Shown here one piece after another: positions 4,860 through 39,748 of a stretch of DNA of 39,748 nucleotides. Position 1 is the first letter of the stretch, and each line of letters begins with the position of its first letter. Under the pieces are notes generated by a model. That model ran no database searches, had not been told where the DNA came from, and saw only the letters and a program-made list of their open reading frames with translations. A program made the translations under genes and the position numbers. Source of the DNA: a virus (Duplodnaviria; Heunggongvirae; Uroviricota; Caudoviricetes); IMG/VR virus record IMGVR_UViG_2563366998_000008, one strand, 5' to 3'.

Positions 4860-5147
4860 GTGCGGGTATTACTTCGACCTGTTCTGGTACCGGAACTTGG
4901 GCTGGTGGTGCTAAAACCGGGCCGTGAATCCATGCCGGTATTCCACAATACCCGGGTACTGGTGGAGCCGGAACCGAAAAGCATGCGTAATCTGTCGTCC
5001 GGGGAGGCGATGTTAATCGCCCTGATCGTCATCTGTTTAACCGTCATAGTGACGGCACTGGTAACGAGGAAAGACCTCTGCGAGGTACGAATCCGAACCG
5101 GCCAGACGGAGGTCGCTGTCTTCACAGCTTACGAACCTGAGGAGTAA
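4860..5147 (+). CDS. chimeric ORF at the duplication junction: DUF968 N-terminus fused in frame to Hok residues 7-51
   Basis: GTG 4860 with GGAGG RBS; first ~47 aa match the start of 5962..7017, remainder is ...MLIALIVICLTVIVTALVTRKDLCEVRIRTGQTEVAVFTAYEPEE. Confidence 0.5.
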   Translation: MRVLLRPVLVPELGLVVLKPGRESMPVFHNTRVLVEPEPKSMRNLSSGEAMLIALIVICLTVIVTALVTRKDLCEVRIRTGQTEVAVFTAYEPEE

Positions 5148-7017: not shown

Positions 7018-7386
7018 ATGACCGAACGCATAGAATTTGTTTTGCCTTACTCGCCGACGGTGAACACTTACTGGCGACGCCGTGGCAGCACATATTTTGT
7101 ATCAAAAGCCGGGGAGCGTTATCGCCGGGCAGTGGCGCTTATTGTTCGCCAGCAGCGACTGAAATTAAGCCTGTCCGGACGGCTGGCAATAAAAATTATT
7201 GCAGAGCCACCGGATAAGCGTCGTCGTGACCTGGACAATATTCTGAAAGCACCACTGGATGCGCTGACGCACGCGGGGTTGTTAATGGACGATGAGCAGT
7301 TTGATGAAATCAATATTGTACGTGGCCAGCCAGTATCTGGTGGACGGCTGGAGATAAGAATTACAGAGGTGGGTGTGCATGAATAA
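7018..7386 (+). CDS. rusA: RusA-family Holliday junction resolvase
   Basis: 122-aa product with RRRDLDN and GGRLEI motifs resembling E. coli RusA; ATG abuts the upstream stop. Confidence 0.85.
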   Translation: MTERIEFVLPYSPTVNTYWRRRGSTYFVSKAGERYRRAVALIVRQQRLKLSLSGRLAIKIIAEPPDKRRRDLDNILKAPLDALTHAGLLMDDEQFDEINIVRGQPVSGGRLEIRITEVGVHE

Positions 7387-8068
7387 CCAGTATTTACAGT
7401 TTGTTCGTGAGCAACTCATGATTGCCACTGCAGATCTCAGTGGGTCGACAAAATGCCAGCTGGAAGCCTGGCAGGAAAATGCCCTGTTCGATACAGGGCG
7501 TTACAGACGCAAAAAAATTCGTTACCGCGATGAGGTAACCGGAAAAATGATCACGCGGGATAATCCCCCGATCCAGGGTAAACAATCACTGGCGAAAGGC
7601 TCATCAATTGCGCTGGTCAGTCCTGTTGAGTTTGCAACATCATCGTGGCGGCGTGCTGTTCTGGAACTGGAAGAACATCAGAAGGCGTGGTTGTTGTGGT
7701 GTTATGGCGGAAACATTTGCTGGGAGCATCAGATCGCGATAACGCAGTGGGGGTGGAGTGAATTTAAAACTCAGTCCGGCTCCAGAAAAATTGCAGTGAA
7801 AACGCTGGAGCGTGTGAAGAAGTTGATCTGGCTGGCGGCACAGGATGTCAGAGGATGGGTTACCGGGTGTGAGGTCTACCAGAGACAGGAGCTTGCCAGA
7901 CTGTGTGGAGTTAAGCCTGATAACTGGAGCCATAATTATGCGAACTACTGGCGTGAGATGTGCGATATTTTTAAGCGCCTCGATAGAGAATCCTTGATTT
8001 GCTCCGTGAAAATAAGAGCGCAACAAAAAGCGACCTTTTCACGACGAGATATTGCAAAAGTCAATTAA
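7379..8068 (+). CDS. Q: late-gene antiterminator Q-like protein
   Basis: Position directly after rusA and before a promoter/terminator pair and the lysis genes; ATG 7379 with GAGGTGGG RBS; family assignment by context. Confidence 0.6.
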   Translation: MNNQYLQFVREQLMIATADLSGSTKCQLEAWQENALFDTGRYRRKKIRYRDEVTGKMITRDNPPIQGKQSLAKGSSIALVSPVEFATSSWRRAVLELEEHQKAWLLWCYGGNICWEHQIAITQWGWSEFKTQSGSRKIAVKTLERVKKLIWLAAQDVRGWVTGCEVYQRQELARLCGVKPDNWSHNYANYWREMCDIFKRLDRESLICSVKIRAQQKATFSRRDIAKVN

Positions 8069-8096
8069 ATCGCGTATGTTTCGTATAAATCTGATA
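8061..8096 (+). promoter_or_regulatory. candidate late promoter (PR'-like)
   Basis: TCAATT - 17 bp - TATAAA just downstream of Q and ~40 bp upstream of the terminator. Confidence 0.3.
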
Positions 8097-8133
8097 TTTT
8101 GCCGATTTTGTACGTGATGGCAAAGTAAGAAAA

Positions 8134-8158
8134 AACCACCGCCAGGTGGTTTTTTTTA
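8134..8158 (+). terminator. rho-independent terminator (tR'-like)
   Basis: AACCACC-GCCA-GGTGGTT hairpin followed by TTTTTTT. Confidence 0.6.
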
Positions 8159-8280
8159 TGTCCGAAAATCGCGTCAGTACAGTAAACGCGCTGGTGGTTG
8201 CGAATACGGGTCTTTCAGCTTGCCGGCTTTTTCGACAAGAGTTATTGGTATGTCACGTTAACCGGAAAAGGGAAAAAGAC

Positions 8281-8478
8281 ATGCTAAAACAGCAGGATAT
8301 GACAGAAGCCGCCAGAGTGGTGTTTAATGAATTAAGCGTTACCGACCCGGCGACAGTCAGGGAGATTGCACAGAATACTTACCTTTCACGCGAACGCTGC
8401 CAGTTAATACTGACCCAGCTTGTTATGGCGGGTCTGGCAGACTATCAGTTTGGTTGTTACAGACACCTTCAGTCCTGA
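8281..8478 (+). CDS. small hypothetical protein (65 aa)
   Basis: ATG 8281; alternative upstream ATG at 8158 lies inside the terminator T-run; weak hairpin plus T-run at its stop. Confidence 0.35.
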   Translation: MLKQQDMTEAARVVFNELSVTDPATVREIAQNTYLSRERCQLILTQLVMAGLADYQFGCYRHLQS

Positions 8479-8791
8479 AGGCTTTTTTATTTGTGGTAAA
8501 TGGGCGGCTGGTGGGTGTGGTGGTTGTTGCTTTCCCGTTGCTGAAAAAGAAAACGCCAGACTGTTAGCCGGGTATCAGTTAGCGGGAGAAATTTTTAAAT
8601 ACTTCACAATTCAGGCGGTTGACTGTTGTCTGGTTTGCGGGGAGTTTGTTAAAAGAAACTGGCATGGTGAATCCCCCTGTGCGGAGGGGCAATCAGCGAG
8701 TAGGTATATGGGATAATCGCGGATTCAGGTGCTGGTACTGAATTCACCGGGAGGCACCCGGCACCATGCAATGGCACATAGCGCCACTCTC

Positions 8792-8827
8792 CAGCCCCTC
8801 TCCGGAGGGGCTGTTTATATTGATTTT
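8792..8827 (+). terminator. hairpin with T-rich tail between convergent genes
   Basis: CAGCCCCTC-TCCG-GAGGGGCTG followed by TTTATATTGATTTT. Confidence 0.4.
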
Positions 8828-8847
8828 GTCAGATGTGAGTAAACTCC

Positions 8848-9183
8848 TTATGGACTTTGTTGTTTTAGCCCATAAGGACATATTTGCAGAGTGCAACGGT
8901 TATTAAAGCATTCATTCAATACGTTATCTGTATTTGTAGGGCATTCCTGGCTGTTTTTGATTAAATTCCAGAATGTTTTATTGAATGGTACTACGTTGTA
9001 AATGGTTACAGGTAGCACTTTGTTATTGAGCATGATACCTGTGTGAGTCAGTGTAAATATACTTTCAGGAGGTAAGAAAGCATCCGATTGATACCAGATT
9101 ATTAATTTTATTTTACTCCATATGACTGAAAAAGATATTCCGCATGATGGCTGGATAACTGTATCAATCACAATCCACTTCAT
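8848..9183 (-). CDS. hypothetical protein (111 aa) in an AT-rich island, opposite strand to the late operon
   Basis: Minus-strand ORF with AAGGA about 6 nt upstream of ATG; AT-rich flanks; no recognised domain. Confidence 0.45.
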
Positions 9184-9443
9184 TTAGTTTCCTTGTTTAT
9201 GCCTTGCTGGTGATGTTCTGAAAAGTATAAATGATATTTTTGATTGTAAACCATAGAGCAGAATTATTTTTCTGATGTTGTTTATTGTTTATTTAAATGC
9301 AGGGTGGTTTATATCTCGTCTTGTAGTTTATCCATGCATATCTGCTTGATGATGAGGTTTTTATTTAAGGTATGGTTTTGTGTTTTTTCTGTATTACATG
9401 TCAGGTATTTTAAAGAATCATTTTTCAGATGGTGGAAAGAACC

Positions 9444-20950: not shown

Positions 20951-21979
20951 ATGGGATTGTTTACGACCCGCCAGTTACTCGGTTATACCGAACAAAAAGT
21001 TAAATTCCGTGCGCTATTTCTGGAGCTGTTTTTCCGCCGTACGGTGAATTTCCACACCGAAGAGGTGATGCTGGACAAAATTACCGGAAAAACGCCGGTG
21101 GCGGCCTATGTCTCCCCGATCGTTGAAGGAAAAGTGCTGCGCCATCGTGGTGGTGAAACCCGCGTGTTGCGTCCGGGCTACGTCAAGCCGAAACACGAAT
21201 TTAATTACCAGCAGGCGGTTGAGCGCCTTCCTGGTGAAGATCCATCTCAACTGAATGATCCGGCTTACCGCCGTCTGCGTATCATTACCGATAACCTCAA
21301 ACAGGAAGAGCACGCCATTGTCCAGGTGGAAGAAATGCAGGCGGTAAATGCTGTGTTGTATGGCAAATACACCATGGAAGGAGACCAGTTCGAGAAAATT
21401 GAGGTCGATTTTGGCAGGTCGACGAAGAATAACATCACTCAGGGTAGTGGTAAGGAGTGGTCAAAACAGGATCGTGACACGTTCGATCCTACACATGATA
21501 TTGACCTCTACTGCGACCAGGCCAGCGGTCTTGTGAATATTGCCATTATGGACGGTACCGGCTGGCGTCTTCTGAATGGTTTTAAGCTGTTCCGCGAAAA
21601 ACTGGATACCCGTCGCGGTTCAAATTCTCAACTCGAAACGGCAGTGAAAGATCTGGGCGCAGTGGTGTCCTTCAAGGGGTATTACGGCGATCTGGCCATT
21701 GTGGTGGCGAAAACGTCTTATATAGCAGAAGACGGTATCGAAAAACGTTATCTTCCAGATGGCATGCTGGTTCTGGGGAATACTGCTGCAGATGGGATCC
21801 GTTGTTACGGTGCCATTCAGGATGCTCAGGCGTTGTCCGAAGGTGTGGTGGCCTCTTCCCGTTATCCGAAACACTGGCTGACGGTAGGGGATCCCGCCCG
21901 TGAATTTACCATGACGCAGTCCGCGCCGCTGATGGTGTTGCCGGACCCGGATGAGTTTGTGGTGGTACAGGTGAAATAA
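20951..21979 (+). CDS. E: major capsid protein (gpE-like)
   Basis: Extensive similarity to lambda gpE (YVSPIV.G.V...PGYVKPKHE, DTRRGSNS.LETAVKDLG, TMTQSAPLM). Confidence 0.95.
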   Translation: MGLFTTRQLLGYTEQKVKFRALFLELFFRRTVNFHTEEVMLDKITGKTPVAAYVSPIVEGKVLRHRGGETRVLRPGYVKPKHEFNYQQAVERLPGEDPSQLNDPAYRRLRIITDNLKQEEHAIVQVEEMQAVNAVLYGKYTMEGDQFEKIEVDFGRSTKNNITQGSGKEWSKQDRDTFDPTHDIDLYCDQASGLVNIAIMDGTGWRLLNGFKLFREKLDTRRGSNSQLETAVKDLGAVVSFKGYYGDLAIVVAKTSYIAEDGIEKRYLPDGMLVLGNTAADGIRCYGAIQDAQALSEGVVASSRYPKHWLTVGDPAREFTMTQSAPLMVLPDPDEFVVVQVK

Positions 21980-22030
21980 TCCGTGAGCGGGGGCGAAATG
22001 CCCCCGTGTCTTTTTTCACAGGGGGCTGAT

Positions 22031-22405
22031 ATGGCAACGAAAGAGCAAAATCTGAAACGGCTTGATGAACTGGCCCTGATTCTGGGGCGTGAGCCGGATA
22101 TATCCGGGAGTGCCGCAGAGATAGCGCAGCGGGTGGCAGAATGGGAAGAGGAAATGCAGTCATCCGGCGATGATGTACAGGTTATGAATATGGATATCCG
22201 GGAGCGGGAAACCGCGGCTCATGATGTTCGTGAGGAAACATCCGGCGCGTTAACGCGCATCAGAGTTCTGACCTGCCTCCATCTCTGTGGCGTTGATGGT
22301 GAAACGGGGGAATCCGTTGAGCTTGCGGATGTTGGTCGGGTGATTCTGATTATGTCCTCAGATGCAAAAACACACGTTGATGGTGGAATGGCTGTTTATG
22401 CGTGA
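22031..22405 (+). CDS. FI: DNA packaging protein FI-like
   Basis: Position between E and FII; acidic small protein; ATG 22031. Confidence 0.65.
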   Translation: MATKEQNLKRLDELALILGREPDISGSAAEIAQRVAEWEEEMQSSGDDVQVMNMDIRERETAAHDVREETSGALTRIRVLTCLHLCGVDGETGESVELADVGRVILIMSSDAKTHVDGGMAVYA

Positions 22406-22751
22406 TTTTCAGAATGCCTTTGATGCCGCCCTTGCCGGGGTGGACAGTACGATTGTTGAAGTGATGGGGATCCGTGCGCAGTTCACCTCCGGAGCACAAC
22501 GTGGCGGCGAAGTTCAGGGGGTTTTTGACGATCCGGAGTCGCTGGGTTTTGCCGGTGGCGGGGTCCGTATTGAAGGAAGCAGCCCGTCATTATTTGTGCG
22601 GACGGATACGGTGCGTGCCGTGCGGCGTGGTGACACGCTGACCATTAACGGCGAGATGTTCTGGGTGGATCGTGTTTCTCCGGATGACGGGGGAAGCTGT
22701 TATCTCTGGCTCAACCGTGGGCAACCACCCGCTGTTAACCGGCGACGATAA
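22398..22751 (+). CDS. FII: head-tail joining protein FII
   Basis: MRDFQNAFDAAL...VFDDPES...GVRIEGSSPSLFVRTD...FWVDRVSPDDGGSCYLWL matches lambda FII. Confidence 0.85.
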   Translation: MRDFQNAFDAALAGVDSTIVEVMGIRAQFTSGAQRGGEVQGVFDDPESLGFAGGGVRIEGSSPSLFVRTDTVRAVRRGDTLTINGEMFWVDRVSPDDGGSCYLWLNRGQPPAVNRRR

Positions 22752-23699: not shown

Positions 23700-24449
23700 A
23701 TGGCAACACCAAATCCCCTGGAGCCGGTAAAAGGTGCCGGTACCACTCTGTGGGTTTACAACGGCAAGGGTGATGCTTATGCAAACCCGTTGTCAGACGC
23801 TGACTGGCAGCGACTGGCTAAGGTGAAGGATCTGACGCCGGGCGAGATGACGGCAGAATCCTACGATGATAACTACCTGGATGATGAAGACGCAGACTGG
23901 ACCGCGACCGGGCAGGGGCAGAAATCTGCAGGTGATACCAGTTTTACGCTGGCCTGGAAACCGGGAGAGGAAGGTCAGAAAGGGCTTATAGGCTGGTTTG
24001 AAAGCGGCGATGTCCGGGCCTATAAAATCCGTTTTCCGAATGGCACGGTGGATGTGTTTCGTGGCTGGGTCAGCAGTATCGGTAAGGCCGTGACGGCGAA
24101 AGAAGTGATCACCCGCACGGTGAAAGTCACTAACGTGGGTAAACCTTCTGTAGCGGAAGAACGCAGCAAAATTACGCCGGTCAGTGCGATTAAGGTGACG
24201 CCGACATCCGGTACGGTGGCAAAAGGGAAAACAACCACCCTGACCGTTACTGTGGAACCGGAAAATGCAACGGATAAGACATTCAGGGCGATTTCCGCCG
24301 ATCCATCAAAAGCCACCATTAGCGTGAAAGATATGACGATTACTGTGACGGGGGTTAAGGATGGAAAAGTCAGCATCCCTGTGATTTCCGGTAATGGTCA
24401 GTTTGCTGCGGTGGCTGAAATTACCGTTAATAATGTGCCGGGTAGCTAA
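23700..24449 (+). CDS. V: major tail protein V with C-terminal Ig-like domain
   Basis: Position and size; C-terminal Big_2-like repeat region typical of lambda gpV. Confidence 0.9.
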
Positions 24450-30580: not shown

Positions 30581-33500
30581 ATGGGAAAAGGTGGCGGTAA
30601 GGCACACACGCCTCGTGAGGCGAAGGATAATCTCAAATCCACGCAGATGATGAGCGTGATTGATGCGATTGGTGAGGGACCGATAGAAGGTCCGGTGAAG
30701 GGACTGCAGAGTATCCTGGTGAACAAAACCCCGCTGACGGACACGGACGGTAATCCCGTGATACACGGTGTGACGGCGGTCTGGCGCGCCGGGGAGCAGG
30801 AGCAGACACCACCGGAAGGCTTTGAGTCCTCCGGTGCTGAAACCGGACTGGGCGTGGAAGTGACGAAGGCAAAACCGGTGACGCGCACCATTACGTCCGC
30901 GAACATTGACCGCCTGCGGGTTACCTTCGGGGTGCAGTCACTGGTGCAGACCACGTCAAAGGGCGACCGTAATCCTTCCTCTGTCCGGATTCTGATTCAG
31001 TTACAGCGTAATGGCCGCTGGGTGACGGAAAAGGATGTCACCATTAACGGCAAGACCACCTCGCAGTTCCTGGCCTCGGTGATTCTGGATAATCTGCCTC
31101 CCCGGCCCTTTAACATCCGGATGGTCAGGGAGACGGCGGACAGCACCACGGACCAGCTGCAGAATAAGACGCTGTGGTCGTCATACACCGAAATCATCGA
31201 TGTGAAACAGTGCTACCCGAACACGGCCATTGTGGGGCTGCAGGTGGATGCGGAGCAGTTCGGCGGCCAGCAGATGACGGTGAACTACCATATCCGCGGT
31301 CGCATCATCCAGGTGCCGTCAAACTATGACCCGGAAAAACGCACGTACAGTGGTATCTGGGACGGCAGTCTGAAACCGGCATACAGCAACAACCCGGCCT
31401 GGTGCCTGTGGGACATGCTGACTCACCCGCGCTACGGCATGGGAAAACGTCTGGGGGCGGCGGATGTGGACAAGTGGGCGCTGTATGCCATCGGGCAGTA
31501 CTGCGACCAGACGGTCCCGGATGGTTTCGGGGGGACCGAGCCGCGGATGACCTTTAATGCGTACCTGGCACAACAGCGTAAGGCGTGGGACGTTCTCAGT
31601 GATTTCTGCTCTGCGATGCGCTGTATGCCGGTATGGAACGGCCAGACGCTGACGTTCGTTCAGGACCGTCCGTCGGATGTGGTGTGGCCGTACACCAACA
31701 GCGATGTGGTGGTGGATGATAACGGCGTGGGTTTCCGCTACAGCTTCAGTGCCCTGAAGGACCGGCACACGGCAGTGGAGGTGAATTACACCGACCCGCA
31801 GAACGGCTGGCAGACCTCCACGGAACTGGTGGAAGACCCGGAAGCCATACTGCGCTACGGACGCAACCTGCTGAAGATGGACGCGTTCGGCTGTACCAGC
31901 CGCGGTCAGGCCCACCGTGCCGGGCTGTGGGTGATAAAGACCGAACTGCTGGAAACGCAGACGGTGGATTTCACGCTCGGGTCACAGGGGCTGCGTCACA
32001 CACCCGGTGACATCATTGAAATCTGTGATAACGACTATGCCGGGACCATGACCGGCGGACGTGTCCTGTCCATCGATGCCGCCAGCCGTACCCTGACGCT
32101 GGACCGGGAGGTGACACTGCCGGAGACCGGCACGGCCACTGTTAATCTGATTAACGGCAGCGGTAAGCCGGCGAGCGTGGCCATCACCGCACACCCCGCG
32201 CCTGACCGGATACAGGTCAGCACCCTGCCGGATGGTGTGGAGACATACGGTGTGTGGGGACTCTCCCTGCCGTCACTGCGTCGTCGCCTGTTCCGCTGTG
32301 TCTCCATCCGGGAAAACACGGACGGCACCTTTGCCATCACGGCGGTGCAGCACGTACCTGAAAAAGAAGCCATCGTGGATAACGGGGCCCGCTTTGAGCC
32401 GCAGTCAGACACCCTGAACAGCGTTATCCCACCGGCAGTGCAGCACCTGACGGTGGAGGTGAGCGCAGCTGACGGCCAGTATCTGGCGCAGGCTAAATGG
32501 GACACGCCGCGGGTGGTGAAGGGCGTGCGCTTCAGTCTGCGCCTGACCAGTGGTAAGGGAACGGATGCCAGACTGGTGACCACCGCCATCACCGCAGACA
32601 CGGAGCACCGTTTCAGCGGCCTGCCACTGGGGGAATACACCCTGACGGTGCGGGCCATTAACAGCTACGGCCAGCAGGGCGAACCTGCGACCACCACCTT
32701 CCGGATTGCCGCACCGGCAGCACCGTCGCGGATTGAGCTGACGCCGGGGTATTTTCAGATAACGGCGGTCCCGCGTCTTGCGGTGTATGACCCGACGGTA
32801 CAGTTTGAATTCTGGTTCTCAGAAAAACGCATCACGAACACGGCACAGGTGGAAAAATCTGCCCGTTATCTGGGGACCGGCAGTCAGTGGACTGTCCAGG
32901 GGAGCCGGATTAAGCCGGGGACGGATTTCTGGTTTTACGTGCGAAGCGTCAACCTGGTGGGAAAATCTGCTTTTGTGGAAGCCAGCGGGCAGCCCAGCAA
33001 TGATGGTGAAGGGTATCTGGAAATTTTCCGGGGGCTGATAGATGAGACGCTTCTGGGCCAGGCACTGAAAGAGCGCATTGATGCTTCAGCGCTGCGTACG
33101 GAGGTCACGCAACTGGAAGAAGACATCCGTCAGCGGATGGACACGGATATCGCAGAAGTGACCCGGAAAATCGGGAAGGCGGAAAACAGCCTCACGCAGC
33201 TGGTTGCGAAAAAGAATGAGGACCAGACACTGGCCATCGCGCAGGTGAGCCAGAAAGTGGACCGGGTGAGCAGTGAAATCTCACAGACTGTCAGCCAGGG
33301 GCAGTCAGAAAACGCCCGACAGATAGCACAGGTCCGCCAGTACGTGGATAAAAAAGGGAGTGAAATTACCTCGACCACGGATAAAAAGCTGGGTGACCAG
33401 GCCGTGACCATACAGCAAATCCAGCGGGTTCAGTCAGACACGCGCAATGAGCTGAATGCCATGTATATGCTGAAGGTGCAGAAAACAAAAAACGGTATTC

Positions 33501-34273
33501 CCTATGTGGCCGGGATTGGTGCGGGGATTGAGGATGTTGATGGTCAGACCCTGAGTAACATTCTGCTGCAGGCCGATCGCATTGCGATGATTACCCCGGA
33601 GAATGGCAACACCACGCCGCTGTTTGTGGCGCAGGGGAATCAGCTGTTCATGAACGACGTGTTCCTGAAGCGACTGTTTGCGGTGAGCATCACGTCATCC
33701 GGCAATCCTCCTACGTTTTCCCTGACGCCGGATGGCAGGCTGACAGCCCGCAATGCGGATATCAGTGGAGCCATCACGGCGAATACCGGCACGCTCAATA
33801 ATGTCACCATTAACGAGAACTGTGTCATCAGAGGGAAACTGTCTGCAAACCAGATTGAAGGCGATCTCGTTAAAACAGTGGGTAAGGCTTTCCCCCGTGA
33901 CTCCCGTGCACCGGAGCGTTGGCCATCAGGAACCATTACCGTCAGGGTTTATGACGATCAGCCGTTTAACCGGCAGATTGTTATTCCGGCGGTGGCTTTC
34001 AGCGGTGCCAGACATGAGCGGGAGAACAGCGATACTTATTCGTCATGCCGCCTGATAGTACGGAAAAACGGTGCTGAAATTTATAACCGTACCGCGCTGG
34101 ATAATACGCTGATTTACAGTGGTGTTATTGATATGCCTGCTGGTCGCGGCCACATGACGCTGGAGTTTTCTGTATCAGCATGGTGGGTAAATGGCTGGTA
34201 TCCCACAGCAAGTATCAGCGATTTGCTGGTTGTTGTGATGAAGAAAGCCACTGCAGGCATCACGATTAGCTGA
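30581..34273 (+). CDS. J: tail tip / host specificity protein J
   Basis: 1230-aa ORF with extensive similarity to lambda gpJ across N-terminal and central regions; ATG 30581 with GGGGAAGG RBS. Confidence 0.95.
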
Positions 34274-34291
34274 ATTTTATAACCCCAATAC

Positions 34292-34318
34292 GGGCGCCAG
34301 AAATGGCGCCTTTTTTAT
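34292..34318 (+). terminator. rho-independent terminator after J
   Basis: GGCGCC-AGAAAT-GGCGCC hairpin followed by TTTTTT. Confidence 0.7.
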
Positions 34319-34340
34319 TGCAGAAAAGCGAGAGGTAATT

Positions 34341-34940
34341 ATGCGTAAAGTTTGTGCAGCCATTTTGTCCGCAGCCATCTGTCTGTCCGTATCCGGTGCG
34401 CCTGCATGGGCGTCTGAACATCAGCCCACACTGAGCGCGGGGTATCTTCATGCCCGTACGAACGCTCCCGGCAGCGATAATCTGAACGGGATTAACGTGA
34501 AATACCGTTATGAGTTTACGGACGCGCTGGGGCTGATTACGTCCTTCAGTTATGCCAATGCTGAGGATGAGCAAAAAACGCACTACAGCGATACCCGCTG
34601 GCATGAAGATTCCGTGCGTAACCGCTGGTTCAGCGTGATGGCGGGGCCGTCTGTACGCGTGAATGAATGGTTCAGCGCGTATGCGATGGTGGGTGTGGCT
34701 TACAGCCGTGTGTCGACTTTCTCCGGGGATTATCTCCGCGTAACTGACAACAAGGGGAAAACGCACGATGTGCTGACCGGAAGTGATGACGGTCGCCACA
34801 GCAACACGTCTCTGGCGTGGGGGGCTGGCGTGCAGTTTAACCCGACCGAATCCGTAACCATTGACCTTGCTTATGAAGGTTCCGGTAGTGGCGACTGGCG
34901 AACGGATGCATTTATTGTTGGTATCGGATACCGTTTCTGA
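34341..34940 (+). CDS. lom: Lom-like outer membrane beta-barrel protein (Ail/Lom/OmpX family)
   Basis: Signal peptide, INVKYRYE, SVMAGP, AYAMVGVA and C-terminal DLAYEGSGSGDWRTDAFIVGIGYRF matching lambda Lom. Confidence 0.85.
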   Translation: MRKVCAAILSAAICLSVSGAPAWASEHQPTLSAGYLHARTNAPGSDNLNGINVKYRYEFTDALGLITSFSYANAEDEQKTHYSDTRWHEDSVRNRWFSVMAGPSVRVNEWFSAYAMVGVAYSRVSTFSGDYLRVTDNKGKTHDVLTGSDDGRHSNTSLAWGAGVQFNPTESVTIDLAYEGSGSGDWRTDAFIVGIGYRF

Positions 34941-35044
34941 CAACAGACGCCGATTTATCTTCTGTAAATATTGTTATGATACGCAGGTTCATCCACCTTA
35001 TGGGGTGAACTGCGTTTGAGGAAACGTAAAGTTACACTGTCCTG

Positions 35045-35078
35045 AAGCCCGTGGCGTCACTGCTGCGGGCTTTTTTTA
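35045..35078 (+). terminator. terminator-like hairpin after lom
   Basis: AAGCCCG ... CGGGCTT stem followed by TTTTTTT. Confidence 0.45.
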
Positions 35079-35091
35079 TTGGTGGAAAAGT

Positions 35092-38000
35092 ATGACAGTA
35101 AAAATTTCTGGCGTGCTTAAAGATGGCACAGGAAAACCAGTACAGAACTGCACCATTGTGCTGAAGGCCAGACGAACCAGCAGCACGGTGGTGGTGAACA
35201 CGGTGGCCTCTGAAAATCCGGATGAAGCCGGACGTTACAGCATGGATGTTGAGCATGGCCAGTACAGCGTCACCCTGCTGGTTGAAGGTTTTCCGCCTTC
35301 ACATGCCGGGACCATTACCGTCTATGAAGGTTCCAGACCAGGTACGCTGAATGATTTTCTCGGTGCCATGACGGAGGATGATGTCCGACCGGAGGCACTG
35401 CGCCGCTTTGAGCAGATGGTGGAAGAGGTGTCACGTAACGCCTCCGCGGTTGCACAGAATACGGCAGCCGCGAAAAAATCAGCCAGCGATGCCAGTGCAT
35501 CAGCCAGCGAGGCGGCAACTCATGCAACCGATGCTGCAGCCTCAGCACGTGCCGCCAGCACGTCAGCCGGACAGGCCGCGTCGTCGGCTCAGTCAGCGTC
35601 TTCCAGCGCAGGAACGGCATCGACAAAGGCCCGTGAAGCAGCAAAAAGTGCTGCTGCTGCAGAGTCATCAAAAAGCGCGGCAGCTACCAGCGCCAGTGCC
35701 GCGAAAACGTCAGAAACGAATGCCGCAGCATCACAAAAATCGGCAGCCACTTCTGCATCCACAGCGACCATGAAGGCGTCAGAAGCTGCCACCTCGGCAC
35801 GGGGTGCGGCGGCCTCAAAAGAGGCAGCGAAATCTTCAGAAACGAATGCATCATCAAGTGCCAGTAGTGCAGCTTCCTCGGCAACGGCGGCAGGAAATTC
35901 CGCGAAGGCGGCAAAAACGTCCGAGACGAACGCTAAGTCTTCTGAAACAGCAGCGGGACAGAGCGCCTCAGCTGCGGCAGGTTCAAAAACAGCGGCTGCA
36001 TTATCTGCCAGTGCCGCGTCAACAAGTGCCGGGCAGGCCTCAGCCAGTGCCACCGCCGCCGGAAAATCGGCAGAAAGCGCCGCATCATCCGCTTCAACAG
36101 CCACAACGAAGGCTGGCAAAGCCACTGAGCAAGCCACTGCAGCAGCGAGGTCTGCTTCTGCAGCAAAAACCTCTGAAACAAATGCAAAGACTTCAGCAGA
36201 CAATGCTGCTTCCTCTAAGGCGGCAGCCGCATCGTCAGCCAGTTCAGCGGCGTCATCGGCATCATCTGCGTCTGCTTCAAAAGATGAGGCGACCAGACAA
36301 GCGTCAGCAGCGAAAGGTAGTGCCACGACAGCAACAACGAAAGCATCAGAGGCGGCAGGCAGTGCGACGGCTGCATCTCAGAGCAAAGTTGCTGCTGAAT
36401 CCGCGGCAACGCGCGCCGAGACAGCAGCAAAACGGGCAGAGGATATTGCATCCGCCGTGGCGCTGGAGGATGCGAGCACGACGAAAAAGGGGATAGTACA
36501 GCTCAGCAGTGCAACAAACAGCACCAGTGAAAAGCTGGCGGCAACGCCAAAGGCAGTTAAAACTGTTAAAGATAGTTCAGTTCAAAAAACTGGCGACACA
36601 ATGGGAGGGCAGTTAAAAATCAGCACGATAAATGCTCTTCGAATATTCAACCAAGCCTTTGGCCTTATTTTTAGGCGTTCCGAAGATCATCTTCATCTTA
36701 TTCCGACTAATGAAGGGGAGGGGGAAAATGGAGACATCGGTTCATTAAGACCATTCTCTATAAACTTAAGATCAGGGTTGGTGTCCATCGGTAATGGACT
36801 AAAAGTTGGTGGTAGTGTTACTGGTAATTTGACCGGAAACGCAGATACTGCGACCAAGATCAAGACAGCACGTAAGATTGGGGGCGTGGCATTTGATGGA
36901 TCGGCAGATATCAACTTGCCTGGAGTCAACGCTACCGGTAATCAAAACACTACAGGTAATGCTGCGACCGCCACGAAACTTCAGGCAGCCAGAACGATTA
37001 ACGGTGTGTCATTTGATGGTAGTGCAAATATCACATTGACCCCTTCAAATATTGGGGCATTGGCATTAACTGGAGGGACTCTTTCAGGTGGTTTAACTGC
37101 TGCTGGTGAGGTTATTTCAAGGTCAGCAAATGGTCTGCGTATTGCCTATGGCAACTATGGATTCTTTATCCGAAATGATGGATCAAACACATATTTTATG
37201 TTGACAGATTCGGGTAACAGTCTTGGTACGCACAATAGCTTAAGGCCGTTTATAATTAGTAACCATACTGGCAATGTTACAATTGCAACTAAATTAAACG
37301 CGAGTGGTGGTATCACTGGATCTTTATCGGGTAATGCAAGCACAGCAACCAAATTGCAAACTGCAAGGACAATTAACGGCGTAAAATTTGACGGCTCGGC
37401 AAATATTGAAGCGTTTCCGCCAGGTGTTCCGCTGCCGTGGCCATCAGATACACCACCTGCAGGTTATGCGATCATGCAGGGGCAGACGTTTGATAAGGCA
37501 GCATATCCGAAACTGGCTATTGCCTATCCTTCAGGTGTTATTCCAGATATGCGCGGCTGGACAATCAAGGGCAAACCCGCCAGTGGCCGGGCCGTATTGT
37601 CTCAGGAACAGGACGGCATAAAATCGCACACCCACAGCGCCAGCGCATCCAGTACGGATTTGGGGACGAAAACCACATCGTCGTTTGATTACGGCACTAA
37701 ATCCACGAATAACACCGGGGCGCATACGCACAGTCTGAGTGGCTCTACGGGGTCTGCCGGTGTTCATACTCATGGTAATGGTATTCGTTGGCCAGGAGGC
37801 GGCGGTTCTGCGTTAGCATTTTATGATGGCGGTGGGTTCACTTATGTCCAGAATTCACAGTATCAAGTAAGCCCGGAGACTTCTTCCTATAGATCGTATT
37901 ATCAACGTATTCAGACACAGTCAGCAGGTGCTCATACCCACTCGCTGTCTGGTACTGCAGCAAGTTCTGGCGCACATGCACATACTGTAGGTATTGGTGC

Positions 38001-38118
38001 GCATACGCACTCCGTTGCGATTGGTTCACATGGACACACCATCACCGTTAACGCTGCGGGTAACGCGGAAAACACCGTCAAAAACATCGCATTTAACTAT
38101 ATTGTGAGGCTTGCATAA
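35092..38118 (+). CDS. stf: side tail fiber protein (Stf-like)
   Basis: N-terminus [22 protein letters not shown]... matches lambda Stf; long Ala/Ser/Thr-rich repeat region; C-terminal His-rich GAHTHS repeats. Confidence 0.9.
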
Positions 38119-38702
38119 TGGCATTCAGAATGAGTGAACAAGCACGGACCATAAAAATTTATAATCTGCTGGCCGGAACTAATGAATTTATTGGTGAAGG
38201 TGACGCATATATTCCGCCTCATACAGGTCTGCCAGCAAACAGTACCGATATTGCACCACCAGATATTCCTGCTGGCTTTGTGGCTGTTTTCAACAGTGAT
38301 GAGGCATCGTGGCATCTCGTTGAAGACCATCGGGGGAAAACGGTTTATGACGTAGCGTCAGGGGACGAGTTATTTATTTCTGAACTCGGTCCGTTACCGG
38401 AAAATGTTACCTGGTTATCGCCGGAAGGGGAGTTTCAGAAGTGGAACGGCACAGCCTGGGTGAAGGATACGGAAGCAGAAAAACTGTTCCGGATCCGGGA
38501 GGCGGAAGAAACAAAAAACAACCTGATGCAGGTAGCCAGTGAGCATATTGCGCCGCTTCAGGATGCTGCAGATCTGGAAATTGCAACGGAGGAAGAAACC
38601 TCATTGCTGGAAGCCTGGAAAAAGTATCGGGTGTTGCTGAACCGTGTTGATACATCAACTGCACCTGATATTGAGTGGCCTACGAACCCTGTCAGGGAGT
38701 AA
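38118..38702 (+). CDS. tfa: tail fiber assembly protein (Tfa)
   Basis: 194 aa; start overlaps stf stop (TAATG); typical Tfa C-terminus. Confidence 0.9.
38538..38702 (+). repeat. tfa 3' segment, direct repeat copy A
   Basis: ~165 bp, roughly 85-90% identical by eye to 39587..39748. Confidence 0.8.
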
Positions 38703-38756
38703 TCATTGGGATTATGCCGCAGCACGTCTTAAGCAAGAACGTGCTGCGGTTGGATG

Positions 38757-39413
38757 CTATTTTTTCCCTGAAGCGGAAAACATTACTACAGTACCTTGAA
38801 CCTTGGTTTTAACATTCTCGAAATGCTCTGAGAGTATATGTGTTAAGCCTTCTTCGGAATCTTTTGTGTTTGAAAAGATGCCTTTCTGATTGTAAATGCG
38901 CATCAGTTTTTGACCGAAGCTATTGTGCACAACTCCATCGCCAAGAATTGTGGCTCCGTATAGAGTTCCATCGTCAGTTAAGGCCTGCGCCGCATTGCGT
39001 ATTACACAGCTTTTTGTAGATATATTTCCAGGCAGGCAGTGAAGAAGGTAAAACATGGAAATGGAATCAAATTGACCATGTAACGCCGCGGGATAAGGTT
39101 CAAAAACATCATGGCTAATTTTATGTTTAATTTTTGATTCCCCAGCCCTTGTAGATGCCGCGTTCAGGCTAGCTTCGTTCAAATCCATTAAAGATATCAG
39201 ACTACTCTCAGGTACGTGAGTAAGGTAAAACCCAGTTCCAACACCAATATCCAGATGGTTGTTACCTACATGTTCCAGAAAGTGTGGAAGAAGGTGTTCC
39301 TTTGTAGGACATCCCCATGCAAGCCGATTTGATACTCCCAAAACCCACCAGTCATAAAGCTTTAGGGTAAGTGGTGTGTAAATTTTAGCCCCATCATCTG
39401 TGTTTTTTTTCAT
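38757..39413 (-). CDS. class I SAM-dependent methyltransferase
   Basis: Minus-strand ORF; HLDIGVGTGFY glycine-rich SAM-binding motif and downstream acidic motif LMDLNE; AT-rich relative to neighbours; likely start at the second ATG (39411-39413) with GGTGA upstream. Confidence 0.7.
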   Translation of the reverse strand: MKKNTDDGAKIYTPLTLKLYDWWVLGVSNRLAWGCPTKEHLLPHFLEHVGNNHLDIGVGTGFYLTHVPESSLISLMDLNEASLNAASTRAGESKIKHKISHDVFEPYPAALHGQFDSISMFYLLHCLPGNISTKSCVIRNAAQALTDDGTLYGATILGDGVVHNSFGQKLMRIYNQKGIFSNTKDSEEGLTHILSEHFENVKTKVQGTVVMFSASGKK

Positions 39414-39481
39414 TGATTTCACCATGTTATAGTTTTATTTGTGAATTAAATCAATTATGGCGATGAATTACAAGGGGTTAA

Positions 39482-39748
39482 ATGCTGCCGCAGCATAGCG
39501 ATATTGAAATAGCCTGGTATGCTTCGATACAGCAGGAGCCGAATGACTGGAAGACCGTCACCACACAGTTCCACATCCAGGAATTCAGTGAGTATATTGC
39601 GCCACTGCAGGATGCTGTAGATCTGGAAATCGCAACGGCGGAAGAAAGATCGTTGCTGGAGGCATGGAATAAATATCGGGTATTGTTGAATCGTGTTGAT
39701 ACATCAACTGCACCTGATATTGAGTGGCCGACTTCACCTGCAGAGTAA
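39482..39748 (+). CDS. short Tfa-like protein (C-terminal Tfa domain only, 88 aa)
   Basis: ATG 39482 after AAGGGG; C-terminal ~50 aa nearly identical to the C-terminus of the tfa product; stop at window end. Confidence 0.55.
39587..39748 (+). repeat. tfa 3' segment, direct repeat copy B
   Basis: Imperfect direct repeat of 38538..38702, flanking the methyltransferase gene. Confidence 0.8.

Follow-up and report, generated by a model that had tools for sequence, protein, structure and literature searches.

Cargo loci behind tail-fibre genes are found in lambdoid prophages of EHEC, EPEC and Shigella and in the Gifsy phages of Salmonella. The closest described counterpart of the locus studied here, the tfaD–ybcY–tfaX arrangement of the DLP12 prophage, is already known, being annotated in reference E. 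coli K-12 and carried by most E. coli. The K-12 ybcY/tfaX spacer contains promoter hexamers identical to those reported below; they were mapped by SELEX with RpoD holoenzyme, and the site is flagged for H-NS (PMC3946193). Deletion of K-12 ybcY leaves Hha toxicity unaltered (PMC2408971), and in the literature searched on ybcY (b0562), tfaX and methyltransferase morons we found no study of function.

The stretch of DNA analyzed, below called the window, comprises 39,748 nt of IMG/VR virus record IMGVR_UViG_2563366998_000008. Its positions 38264–39728 are 97% identical at the nucleotide level to NC_000913.3 581659–583121 (K-12 tfaD-ybcY'-tfaX), collinear, and with the same gene order and strands, a correspondence that had escaped the earlier note on this DNA. 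The region is likely to form the cargo-bearing end of the right arm in a lambda-like prophage and to represent an intact version of K-12 DLP12 tfaD-ybcY-tfaX, with ybcY being a moron and the repeat around it, a joining scar. The two loci differ in several respects: ybcY is intact here, whereas K-12 ybcY (b0562) is a pseudogene with a 2-bp deletion at its start; tfa is full length here, whereas K-12 tfaD (b0561) has a foreign 5' end; the tfaX ORF has 88 aa here, whereas K-12 tfaX (b0563) ends at 61 aa; and our copy belongs to a complete-looking prophage and lies at its potB end, while the K-12 one is at argU/ompT. The ybcY promoter hexamers are the same in both. The features of the region, in window coordinates, are the following.

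38118-38702, plus strand: full-length tfa, coding for a 194-aa tail fibre assembly chaperone, lambda Stf/Tfa type (full Caudo_TAP match, E 1.9e-44)
38526-38683, plus strand: direct repeat copy 1, coding for the conserved Tfa C-terminal domain (158 nt, 87% identical to copy 2)
38716-38750, unstranded: strong hairpin just 3' of the tfa stop (fold -28.6 kcal/mol on the plus strand and -25.4 on the minus strand, z -3.7 and -3.9)
38752-39586, unstranded: cargo ("moron") unit made up of ybcY with its promoter region and of codons 1-35 of a divergent phrog_3893-family gene (from Citrobacter homology and lambda divergence at 38751)
38757-39413, minus strand: ybcY, class I SAM-dependent methyltransferase, 218 aa, or 222 aa from the alternative ATG at 39425 (motif HLDIGVGTGFY, Pfam)
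39426-39454, minus strand: predicted sigma-70 promoter of ybcY (TTGATT at 39454-39449, 17 nt, TATAAC at 39431-39426)
39482-39748, plus strand: short ORF (K-12 tfaX), 88 aa (phrog_3893 N-terminus and Caudo_TAP C-terminus)
39482-39586, plus strand: first 35 codons of this ORF, the 5' end of a phrog_3893-family gene and not Tfa sequence (phrog_3893 match, residues 3-37)
39575-39732, plus strand: direct repeat copy 2, in the 3' part of tfaX (158 nt, 87% identical to copy 1)
39587-39748, plus strand: tfa 3' remnant joined in frame, comprising the final 53 codons with the stop (match to Caudo_TAP profile positions 75-131, E 6e-25)

Much of this agrees with the earlier note, which had described a minus-strand SAM methyltransferase with the HLDIGVGTGFY motif after tfa, followed by a short plus-strand ORF, all at or near the positions given here; a direct repetition of the tfa 3' end around the methyltransferase, starting at 38538 and 39587 at the protein level, as we also find; and a duplication of the Tfa C-terminus in the C-terminus of the short ORF. 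The note had also called the methyltransferase DNA AT-rich; its GC content is indeed lower (0.40–0.43 over ybcY vs. 0.47–0.51 over tfa), but the difference is modest. The repeat copies align without gaps at a spacing of 1049, and the match of copy 2 to lambda tfa (blastn E 7e-51) shows that the repeat is no chance likeness.

Window positions 37981–38751 are 92.5% identical to lambda 21836–22608. This homology stops at 38751, right after the hairpin, which marks a module boundary; lambda there has ea47, on the same strand as ybcY, and a second copy of the hairpin follows ea47 at lambda 24161–24202. In most relatives repeat copy 2 continues through the second hairpin, the equivalent of window 38526–38751, and at this hairpin relatives return to lambda-like sequence (lambda 24161–24219). 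As lambda has ea47 between the two flanks, the change is a replacement, with no clean empty site. Similar to the lambdoid morons (lom, bor, and the ea47 position of the lambda b region), ybcY is a single extra gene of lower GC content, with its own promoter, at a module boundary, its site being exactly at the end of lambda homology. It differs from them in that it encodes an enzyme, shows no evident canonical terminator, and came with pieces of two other genes in the insertion.

The hairpin, stable also on the minus strand, lies 3' of the ybcY stop and lacks a U-run, and the terminator scan found no canonical intrinsic terminator at 38716–38750 on either strand. The Rfam model IS009 matches 38461–38659 (225 bits), inside the tfa coding sequence; this family appears to model the protein-coding tfa and not a gene for RNA. 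The other Rfam matches, CssrB and mir-875 on the hairpin, are below threshold, and no RNA gene was accepted.

The promoter hexamers make it probable that, in the lysogen, ybcY transcription starts at a sigma-70 promoter of its own; the promoter sequence is kept in Citrobacter. As the –10 hexamer abuts the first ATG (39425), the start at 39413 is favoured. Given the H-NS flag on the K-12 spacer, ybcY may be silent in laboratory conditions.

The locus is an ordinary one, its unique part being present in 3838 of the 5426 complete E. coli genomes examined (71%), with about 4900 copies in all and at most four per genome. Copies 98–99.7% identical to it are found in the isolated or induced phages 204576, PhiR26_1, PhiR30_1, 2G7b and ev243, positioned between tfa and the hydrolase/ompT/int end. 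This distribution, in genomes and in isolated phages (2G7b, ev243, PhiR26_1), indicates that ybcY is phage cargo and not a core gene, as proposed in the earlier note, which had also considered an ordinary methyltransferase of a conserved chromosomal locus: the chromosomal homologues (Enterobacter, Salmonella, Pseudomonas and others) are only 50–69% identical and have no adjoining tfa. In UPEC 536 ybcY is intact beside ompT inside a decayed DLP12 remnant (int'-'tfa-ybcY-ompT), and in ATCC 25922, which has an identical locus, the next gene is potB, 232 bp past the window end. No invertase is therefore found beyond the window, where the note had advised to look for one; moreover, the repeats are direct and positions 34000–39748 contain no inverted repeats, so that the region does not have the structure of an invertible segment of the Gin/Pin/Cin type.

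Among the relatives, ybcY is constant at 97–100% identity and the variable part is the upstream fibre module, seen in four unrelated arrangements, with homology to the window beginning at 38557, 38582, 38605 or 38711–38717, that is, at least four joints. In some relatives an IpaH-like LRR-NEL effector gene separates tfa from ybcY, in line with the suggestion of the earlier note that this is a known region for cargo behind tail-fibre genes. The genomic position is the same as that of the EHEC/EPEC/Shigella and Gifsy cargo loci; unlike the cargo there, ybcY did not qualify as encoding a secreted effector in any test applied, and it is far commoner, given its presence in most complete genomes. 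An E. albertii homologue sits among NleG/OspG effector genes. Some relatives (for example L089) have an inverted arrangement of two tfa genes upstream.

The ybcY family is chromosomal and widespread in Gammaproteobacteria. A Citrobacter prophage remnant is 92% identical to the window over 38745–39568 only, with unrelated flanks on both sides. In the scan of species-representative loci, pieces of tfa or phrog_3893 adjoin only Escherichia/Shigella-type copies at least 99% identical (8 of 80 loci, two of these on contigs of non-enteric metagenome bins), and we infer that ybcY entered Escherichia lambdoid phages once.

The short ORF tfaX is a chimera. Its residues 31–87 match Caudo_TAP profile positions 75–131 of 131 (E 6e-25), while residues 1–37 belong to phrog_3893 and the N-terminal fibre-binding domain is absent, so that the 88-aa product does not qualify as a Tfa protein; comparison of Tfa proteins with tfaX residues 1–26 yielded no match. 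Beside the Citrobacter ybcY there is a full-length 80-aa gene matching phrog_3893 over 1–78/79 (E 7.6e-38), and other full-length homologues are present in HK225, mEp390, HK140 and phages of Klebsiella, Erwinia and Cronobacter. In PHROGs, tfaX-type ORFs form a family of their own, phrog_2341, of exactly 88 aa. About 61 of 82 sampled copies are intact and about 19 are disrupted by stops, frameshifts or a replaced 3' end; as this sample was picked for intact ybcY, it is no fair comparison of tfaX and ybcY decay. A DinI fragment annotated by PGAP in strain CRE1493 on the minus strand (equivalent of 39500–39579) was rejected, its translation showing no convincing DinI and no Pfam match; the plus-strand phrog_3893 reading is well supported and preferred.

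The enzyme class was approached via profiles, motifs and a structural model. Pfam classification, advised in the earlier note, gives four families above the gathering scores: Methyltransf_12 (37.5 bits, cut-off 30), Methyltransf_23 (29, cut-off 27), Methyltransf_25 (27.7, cut-off 27) and Methyltransf_11 (24.6, cut-off 21.2). Motif I, DIGVGTG, occupies residues 55–61 of the 218-aa YbcY, and D55, G57, G59 and G61 are invariant in 24 homologues, whose alignment has 66 invariant columns. The model predicts a single compact domain with the alternating beta/alpha fold of methyltransferases. The only PDB sequence matches are JH acid methyltransferase, UbiG, ToxA and PE N-methyltransferase; Foldseek ranks a bacterial phosphatidylethanolamine N-methyltransferase first, and there are weak sequence matches to PmtA, UbiG and RquA; the BFVD fold search with YbcY yielded nothing specific and no NCBIfam equivalog reached its cut-off (CpaM, RquA and PmtA score 16–18 bits vs. 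cut-offs of 175–390). YbcY shares the Rossmann methyltransferase fold and the N-terminal helical lid with UbiG/UbiE/Coq5, bacterial PmtA, JH acid methyltransferase and natural-product C/N/O-methyltransferases, which are also its best sequence and fold matches, but at only 12–20% identity. YbcY is a class I SAM-dependent methyltransferase that resembles those acting on small molecules or lipids; the latter class is assigned by exclusion, as the structural matches are generic and none stands out (TM about 0.6). Its target would be a host metabolite, quinone, lipid head group or xenobiotic, and not DNA. Genomic context gives no clue to the substrate, as no gene is shared across genera: clustering of ORFs within 3.5 kb of the gene in the 80 loci reveals synteny only within Pseudomonas. 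A role in defence was rejected, the PADLOC score being 12.8 bits, below match level.

The repeat could be read differently, as the two tfa 3' copies might serve as portable homology, with homologous recombination between phages adding the methyltransferase, removing it or exchanging it, essentially the mechanism proposed in the earlier note. The repeats are real and direct; the C-terminal domain, which is what Tfa proteins conserve, provides homology that many phages share; three tfaX-type bases inside the repeat of K-12 tfaD could be a short gene-conversion patch; and the cargo behind tfa varies by phage, with ea47 in lambda and an IpaH-like effector in others. However, a hybrid tfa query representing the product of repeat-by-repeat deletion found none in the 5426 complete genomes (the best full-length match was 95.8%, an ordinary tfa giving 94.5%), and the phage collection holds no full-length Tfa having a tfaX-type C-terminus above 77% protein identity. 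Moreover, the right-hand copy starts at an illegitimate joint within another gene, a phrog_3893-family one, and the left-hand copy is cut variously by fibre-module replacement in relatives with ybcY constant. We consider such exchange unlikely, and the repeats look like a recombination scar rather than cassette ends. Even more improbable is that the scar has acquired a function, with the 88-aa TfaX made as a free Tfa C-terminal oligomerisation domain acting on fibre assembly, either hindering the Tfa of competitors or helping the resident one. Roughly three quarters of the sampled copies have an intact ORF, which has its own 88-aa family, and the K-12 SELEX table has a promoter-like site for tfaX (PMC3946193); against this stand the disrupted copies, which include K-12 and phage 2G7b, its loss in UPEC 536, where ybcY is kept, and the absence of the fibre-binding domain. 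In work on Mu Tfa the C-terminal domain is reportedly the conserved part, thought to drive multimerisation, which we take as support for a functional TfaX.

With regard to ybcY itself, we regard it as highly improbable that the product is an orphan phage DNA methylase, directed against restriction or setting an epigenetic mark in the lysogen. Orphan DNA methylases are frequent in phages and ybcY does encode a SAM-dependent methyltransferase, but the Pfam families N6_Mtase, N6_N4_Mtase, DNA_methylase and MethyltransfD12 are unmatched, the 218-aa sequence has neither a (D/N/S)PP(Y/F/W) nor a PCQ motif, the compact single-domain model shows no target-recognition domain, and PADLOC is empty. Further, the 50–60 best fold matches listed and the sequence neighbours are small-molecule, lipid and a few tRNA methyltransferases, none of them for DNA, and the homologues are stand-alone chromosomal genes in many genera. 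It is doubtful, if less so, that ybcY is a functionless passenger in E. coli, common only because it travels with prophages that do well and with the DLP12 remnant next to ompT. The K-12 pseudogene shows that ybcY is dispensable there, the protein database contains truncated forms (P0027, P0097), and the literature searched reports no ybcY phenotype; on the contrary, dN/dS is 0.21 vs. the Citrobacter copy and 0.11 vs. the Salmonella copy, ybcY is intact in the remnant reduced to int'-'tfa-ybcY-ompT, and the protein cluster at 100% identity has 6589 member sequences. Judged by these ratios of 0.1–0.2, ybcY is under purifying selection. As doubtful as the passenger reading is the idea that it is a domesticated lysogenic-conversion enzyme, kept by selection in E. 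coli, with an envelope lipid or a quinone as methyl acceptor or with a role in the detoxification of a small xenobiotic; its presence in 71% of complete genomes, its persistence in the decayed remnant and the matches to phosphatidylethanolamine N-methyltransferase, PmtA, UbiG and RquA are in line with it.

Taking ybcY as a moron and the repeat as a joining scar, the order of events was probably as follows. A stand-alone, somewhat AT-rich gene opposing the late operon would have been added as a moron, and codon 35 of the neighbouring phrog_3893-family gene would have been joined, illegitimately and in frame, to the 53 codons at the end of another tfa, most simply by unequal crossover between two phage genomes. 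The product would be tfa – hairpin – ybcY – 'tfa, with the chimeric tfaX ORF probably a dispensable remnant. Afterwards, upstream fibre modules were probably exchanged repeatedly, which truncated the first tfa copy at varying points, while ybcY was kept.

The importance of the finding is small, as the arrangement is annotated in a reference genome and common in E. coli. Still, ybcY is a conserved, uncharacterised enzyme gene on common prophages, and thus a sensible target for work on E. coli genes of unknown function; if it is indeed a domesticated conversion enzyme, membrane properties or resistance would be altered in lysogens. The locus is also a clear example of cargo fixation in lambdoid phages, in which an illegitimate in-frame joint produced the chimeric tfaX ORF, and upstream fibre modules differ among relatives, with joints at differing points of the old tfa 3' end.

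The final 5 kb of the window are the right-arm late region of a lambda-like prophage, and the features at this end are as follows.

30581–34273, J
34341–34940, lom
35092–38118, side tail fibre gene (stf), 1008 aa
38118–38702, tfa, 194 aa, a full Caudo_TAP protein (E 1.9e-44)
38716–38750, stable hairpin 3' of tfa (–28.6 kcal/mol on the plus strand, –25.4 on the minus strand; z close to –3.8)
38757–39425, minus strand, methyltransferase ORF (ybcY) containing HLDIGVGTGFY, with Pfam matches
39482–39748, plus strand, short ORF (tfaX), 88 codons, residues 31–87 matching the C-terminal half of Caudo_TAP (E 6e-25)
38526–38683 and 39575–39732, direct repeat, 158 nt, 87% identity, gap-free

An earlier note had described a minus-strand methyltransferase in AT-rich DNA, bracketed by direct repeats of the tfa 3' end, and a short plus-strand ORF duplicating the Tfa C-terminus, and all of these are borne out: the methyltransferase passes the gathering scores of Pfam families Methyltransf_12, _23, _25 and _11, its GC content is 0.40–0.43 vs. 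0.47–0.51 in tfa, the short ORF matches Caudo_TAP, and the aligned repeats begin, at the protein level, at 38538/39587 as noted. A 45-aa RefSeq “hypothetical protein” (WP_001309429.1, 38675–38812, plus strand), reading across the tfa stop codon and hairpin into the 3' end of ybcY on the opposite strand, is probably a spurious gene call. Upstream, copies of a T-rich 20-nt direct repeat, GCCTTTTTTATTGCAGAAAA (80% identity), are located just 5' of lom (34308–34327) and just 5' of stf (35069–35088), bracketing the lom moron, and the Ala/Ser-rich N-terminal third of stf (35467–36192) contains five 33-nt units (62–100% identical), which are repetitive coding sequence of the fibre shaft.

The region is the already annotated tfaD–ybcY–tfaX arrangement, found in most E. 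coli. In the DLP12 cryptic prophage of E. coli K-12 MG1655, tfaD (b0561), ybcY (b0562, a minus-strand pseudogene) and tfaX (b0563) are arranged in the same order, and this stretch is 97% identical to 38264–39728 of the window, but in K-12 the start of ybcY has a deletion of 2 bp, and tfaX ends early at a premature stop. The methyltransferase gene is named “YbcY” in the annotation of phage PhiR26_1, and PHROGs families exist for both proteins (phrog_2132, 218 aa; phrog_2341, 88 aa). Among 5426 complete E. coli genomes, 1499 cover at least 80% of the 1649-bp tfa–ybcY–tfaX stretch (ATCC 25922 is one of those with 100% identity), and the unique part (38752–39574) is present in 3838 genomes at 4887 places, all with at least 95% identity and at most four copies per genome. 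No functional study of ybcY or tfaX was found in our literature search; ybcY is mentioned as the ompT neighbor in UPEC strains (PMC6854850), and its deletion in K-12 left Hha toxicity unaltered (PMC2408971). This analysis adds that tfaX arose as a chimera, delimits the cargo unit, describes how the fibre modules around it turn over, and excludes a DNA-methylase role.

As potB begins 232 bp past the window end in ATCC 25922, the region is the attR-proximal prophage end, and the alternative to phage cargo, raised in the earlier note, is a core methyltransferase at a conserved chromosomal locus. Stand-alone chromosomal homologs occur in Enterobacter, Salmonella, Klebsiella, Yersinia, Erwinia, Proteus, Pasteurellaceae, Pseudomonas, Xanthomonadales and Oxalobacteraceae, but these are only 50–69% identical, and isolated or induced phages (204576, PhiR26_1, PhiR30_1, PhiR29_1, 2G7b, ev243) carry ybcY at 98–99.7% identity. 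In PhiR26_1 and 2G7b, the two phages inspected, the gene is flanked by the fibre genes on one side and a hydrolase/ompT block on the other, and in 2G7b int follows this block. Hence, the cargo claim holds for this copy, and ybcY is still inside the phage, not core. In a scan of 80 loci (one genome per species) no ybcY neighbor is conserved across genera, and tfa or phrog_3893 pieces adjoin eight loci, only Escherichia/Shigella-type copies at least 99% identical, including two on contigs assigned to non-enteric metagenome bins. Contigs L102 and L112, on which E. coli ybcY is 99–100% identical and accompanied by parts of tfa, are placed in bins named Bacillus sp. and Planococcaceae, very likely by binning contamination. 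Most simply, Escherichia lambdoid phages captured a chromosomal gene once.

The short ORF, tfaX, is a chimera. Its residues 3–37 match phrog_3893 (a 79-aa family), residues 1–26 are matched by no Tfa protein, and the fibre-binding half of Tfa is absent. In a Citrobacter prophage remnant, ybcY (90% identical) has as its neighbor a full-length gene (80 aa) that shares its first 35 codons with tfaX, matches phrog_3893 end to end (E 7.6e-38) and has full-length relatives in HK225, mEp390, HK140 and phages of Klebsiella, Erwinia and Cronobacter. E. coli and Citrobacter have 38745–39568 in common at 92% identity and nothing on either side; lambda is 92.5% identical to the window up to 38751 and then continues into minus-strand ea47. 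Based on this common stretch, the lambda divergence point, and the phrog_3893 start of the short ORF, the cargo unit, that is, ybcY, its promoter region and 35 codons of the phrog_3893-family gene, occupies approximately 38752–39586. On the right the unit ends where codon 35 of that gene is fused, illegitimately but in frame, to the 3'-terminal 53 codons of a second tfa, which in most relatives continues through its own hairpin, corresponding to 38526–38751 of the window at 88–89% identity. Unequal crossover between two phage genomes would suffice to account for both the joint and the second tfa copy. At three bases K-12 tfaD (sequence L004, about 7975–8005, compared with 38577–38604 of the window) is tfaX-like, unlike the tfa of the window, which may reflect either a short tract of gene conversion between the repeats or an old polymorphism. 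About 61 of about 82 sampled tfaX copies are intact at 86–89 aa, and about 19 have stops, frameshifts or a replaced 3' end, K-12 and 2G7b included; as the sample was selected for intact ybcY, these counts show dispensability only. In UPEC 536, tfaX is lost, and ybcY is intact next to ompT.

YbcY homologs start at the second ATG (39413, 218 aa). The promoter sequence TTGATT–17–TATAAC (39454–39426), whose –10 hexamer abuts the first ATG, is conserved in Citrobacter, and the same hexamers constitute a site in the K-12 ybcY/tfaX spacer from genomic SELEX with the RpoD holoenzyme, with an H-NS flag (PMC3946193). Conservation in the family is strong (66 invariant columns among 24 sequences), and dN/dS is 0.21 relative to the Citrobacter copy and 0.11 relative to a Salmonella copy. 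The structural model is confident (pLDDT 89.4), and PDB sequence searches yield only juvenile hormone acid methyltransferase, UbiG, ToxA, and PE or phosphoethanolamine N-methyltransferases. We conclude that YbcY is a predicted small-molecule or lipid methyltransferase; in our judgment, a metabolite or xenobiotic is the somewhat favored substrate, a lipid or quinone is unlikely, a protein or RNA equally so, and DNA highly improbable. The DNA-methylase candidate was rejected, as YbcY has no DNA-methylase family match, DPPY- or PCQ-type motif or target-recognition domain, and PADLOC reports nothing.

In lambda (NC_001416) the post-tfa hairpin occurs twice, around 22570–22608 and 24161–24202, bracketing ea47 much like ybcY in the window, and it may mark module boundaries generally in the lambda b region. 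A sub-threshold Rfam match to the Shigella sRNA CssrB covers this hairpin (38686–38748, 32.6 bits vs. gathering 76, E 2.8e-4), and the same prophage element may be the source of CssrB. Rfam family IS009 (RF02111) matches both tfa 3' copies, at 38461–38659 (225 bits, above the gathering score) and 39505–39708 (109 bits, below it); as both matches are on the coding strand within the Tfa coding sequence, IS009 probably models conserved tfa coding DNA, not an sRNA.

The earlier note further proposed that the cassette was acquired or exchanged through the repeats. In 80 IMG/VR prophage contigs and several phages, unbroken homology around ybcY either extends into tfa and stf or begins at one of four points: at 38557, downstream of a 1259-aa fibre gene whose product, judged by eye from its C-terminal sequence, holds its own intramolecular chaperone domain; at 38582, downstream of a 2G7b-type fibre set, with an abrupt joint 18 bp past an unrelated 99-aa ORF; at 38605, downstream of a Mu/P1-like pair of opposed tfa genes; and at 38711–38717, where an IpaH-like LRR-NEL effector is found between a different tfa and ybcY. 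In contig L089 (2700989363_000008, 7266–9435), two opposed tfa and two opposed fibre C-terminal ORFs, resembling the Mu/P1 invertible segment, lie directly 5' of the tfa remnant and ybcY, with no invertase gene in the 460 bp between the opposed genes. The effector gene in the tfa/ybcY interval of a group of relatives (L070, contig 2562617057_000009, 6973–8616) encodes a 547-aa IpaH/SspH-like E3 ligase with LRR and NEL, and an E. albertii ybcY homolog is located amid NleG and OspG effector genes and cdtA. About 4 kb past tfaX, positions 1–470 of contigs L071 and L079 contain another tfa and, in the same orientation, the 3' end of another ybcY, which suggests a PhiR26_1-like prophage in tandem with a DLP12-type remnant. 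A search of the 5426 complete E. coli genomes with the sequence expected from recombination across the repeats returned no hybrid tfa; the best full-length match was 95.8% identical (ordinary tfa, 94.5%). Thus, the proposed interpretation is partly supported: phage cargo behind tfa stands, and exchange through the repeats is unlikely. The variable part among relatives is the fibre module, not the methyltransferase, and, given this variation and the lack of hybrid tfa, we read the repeats as scars at a busy module boundary rather than the ends of a hopping cassette.
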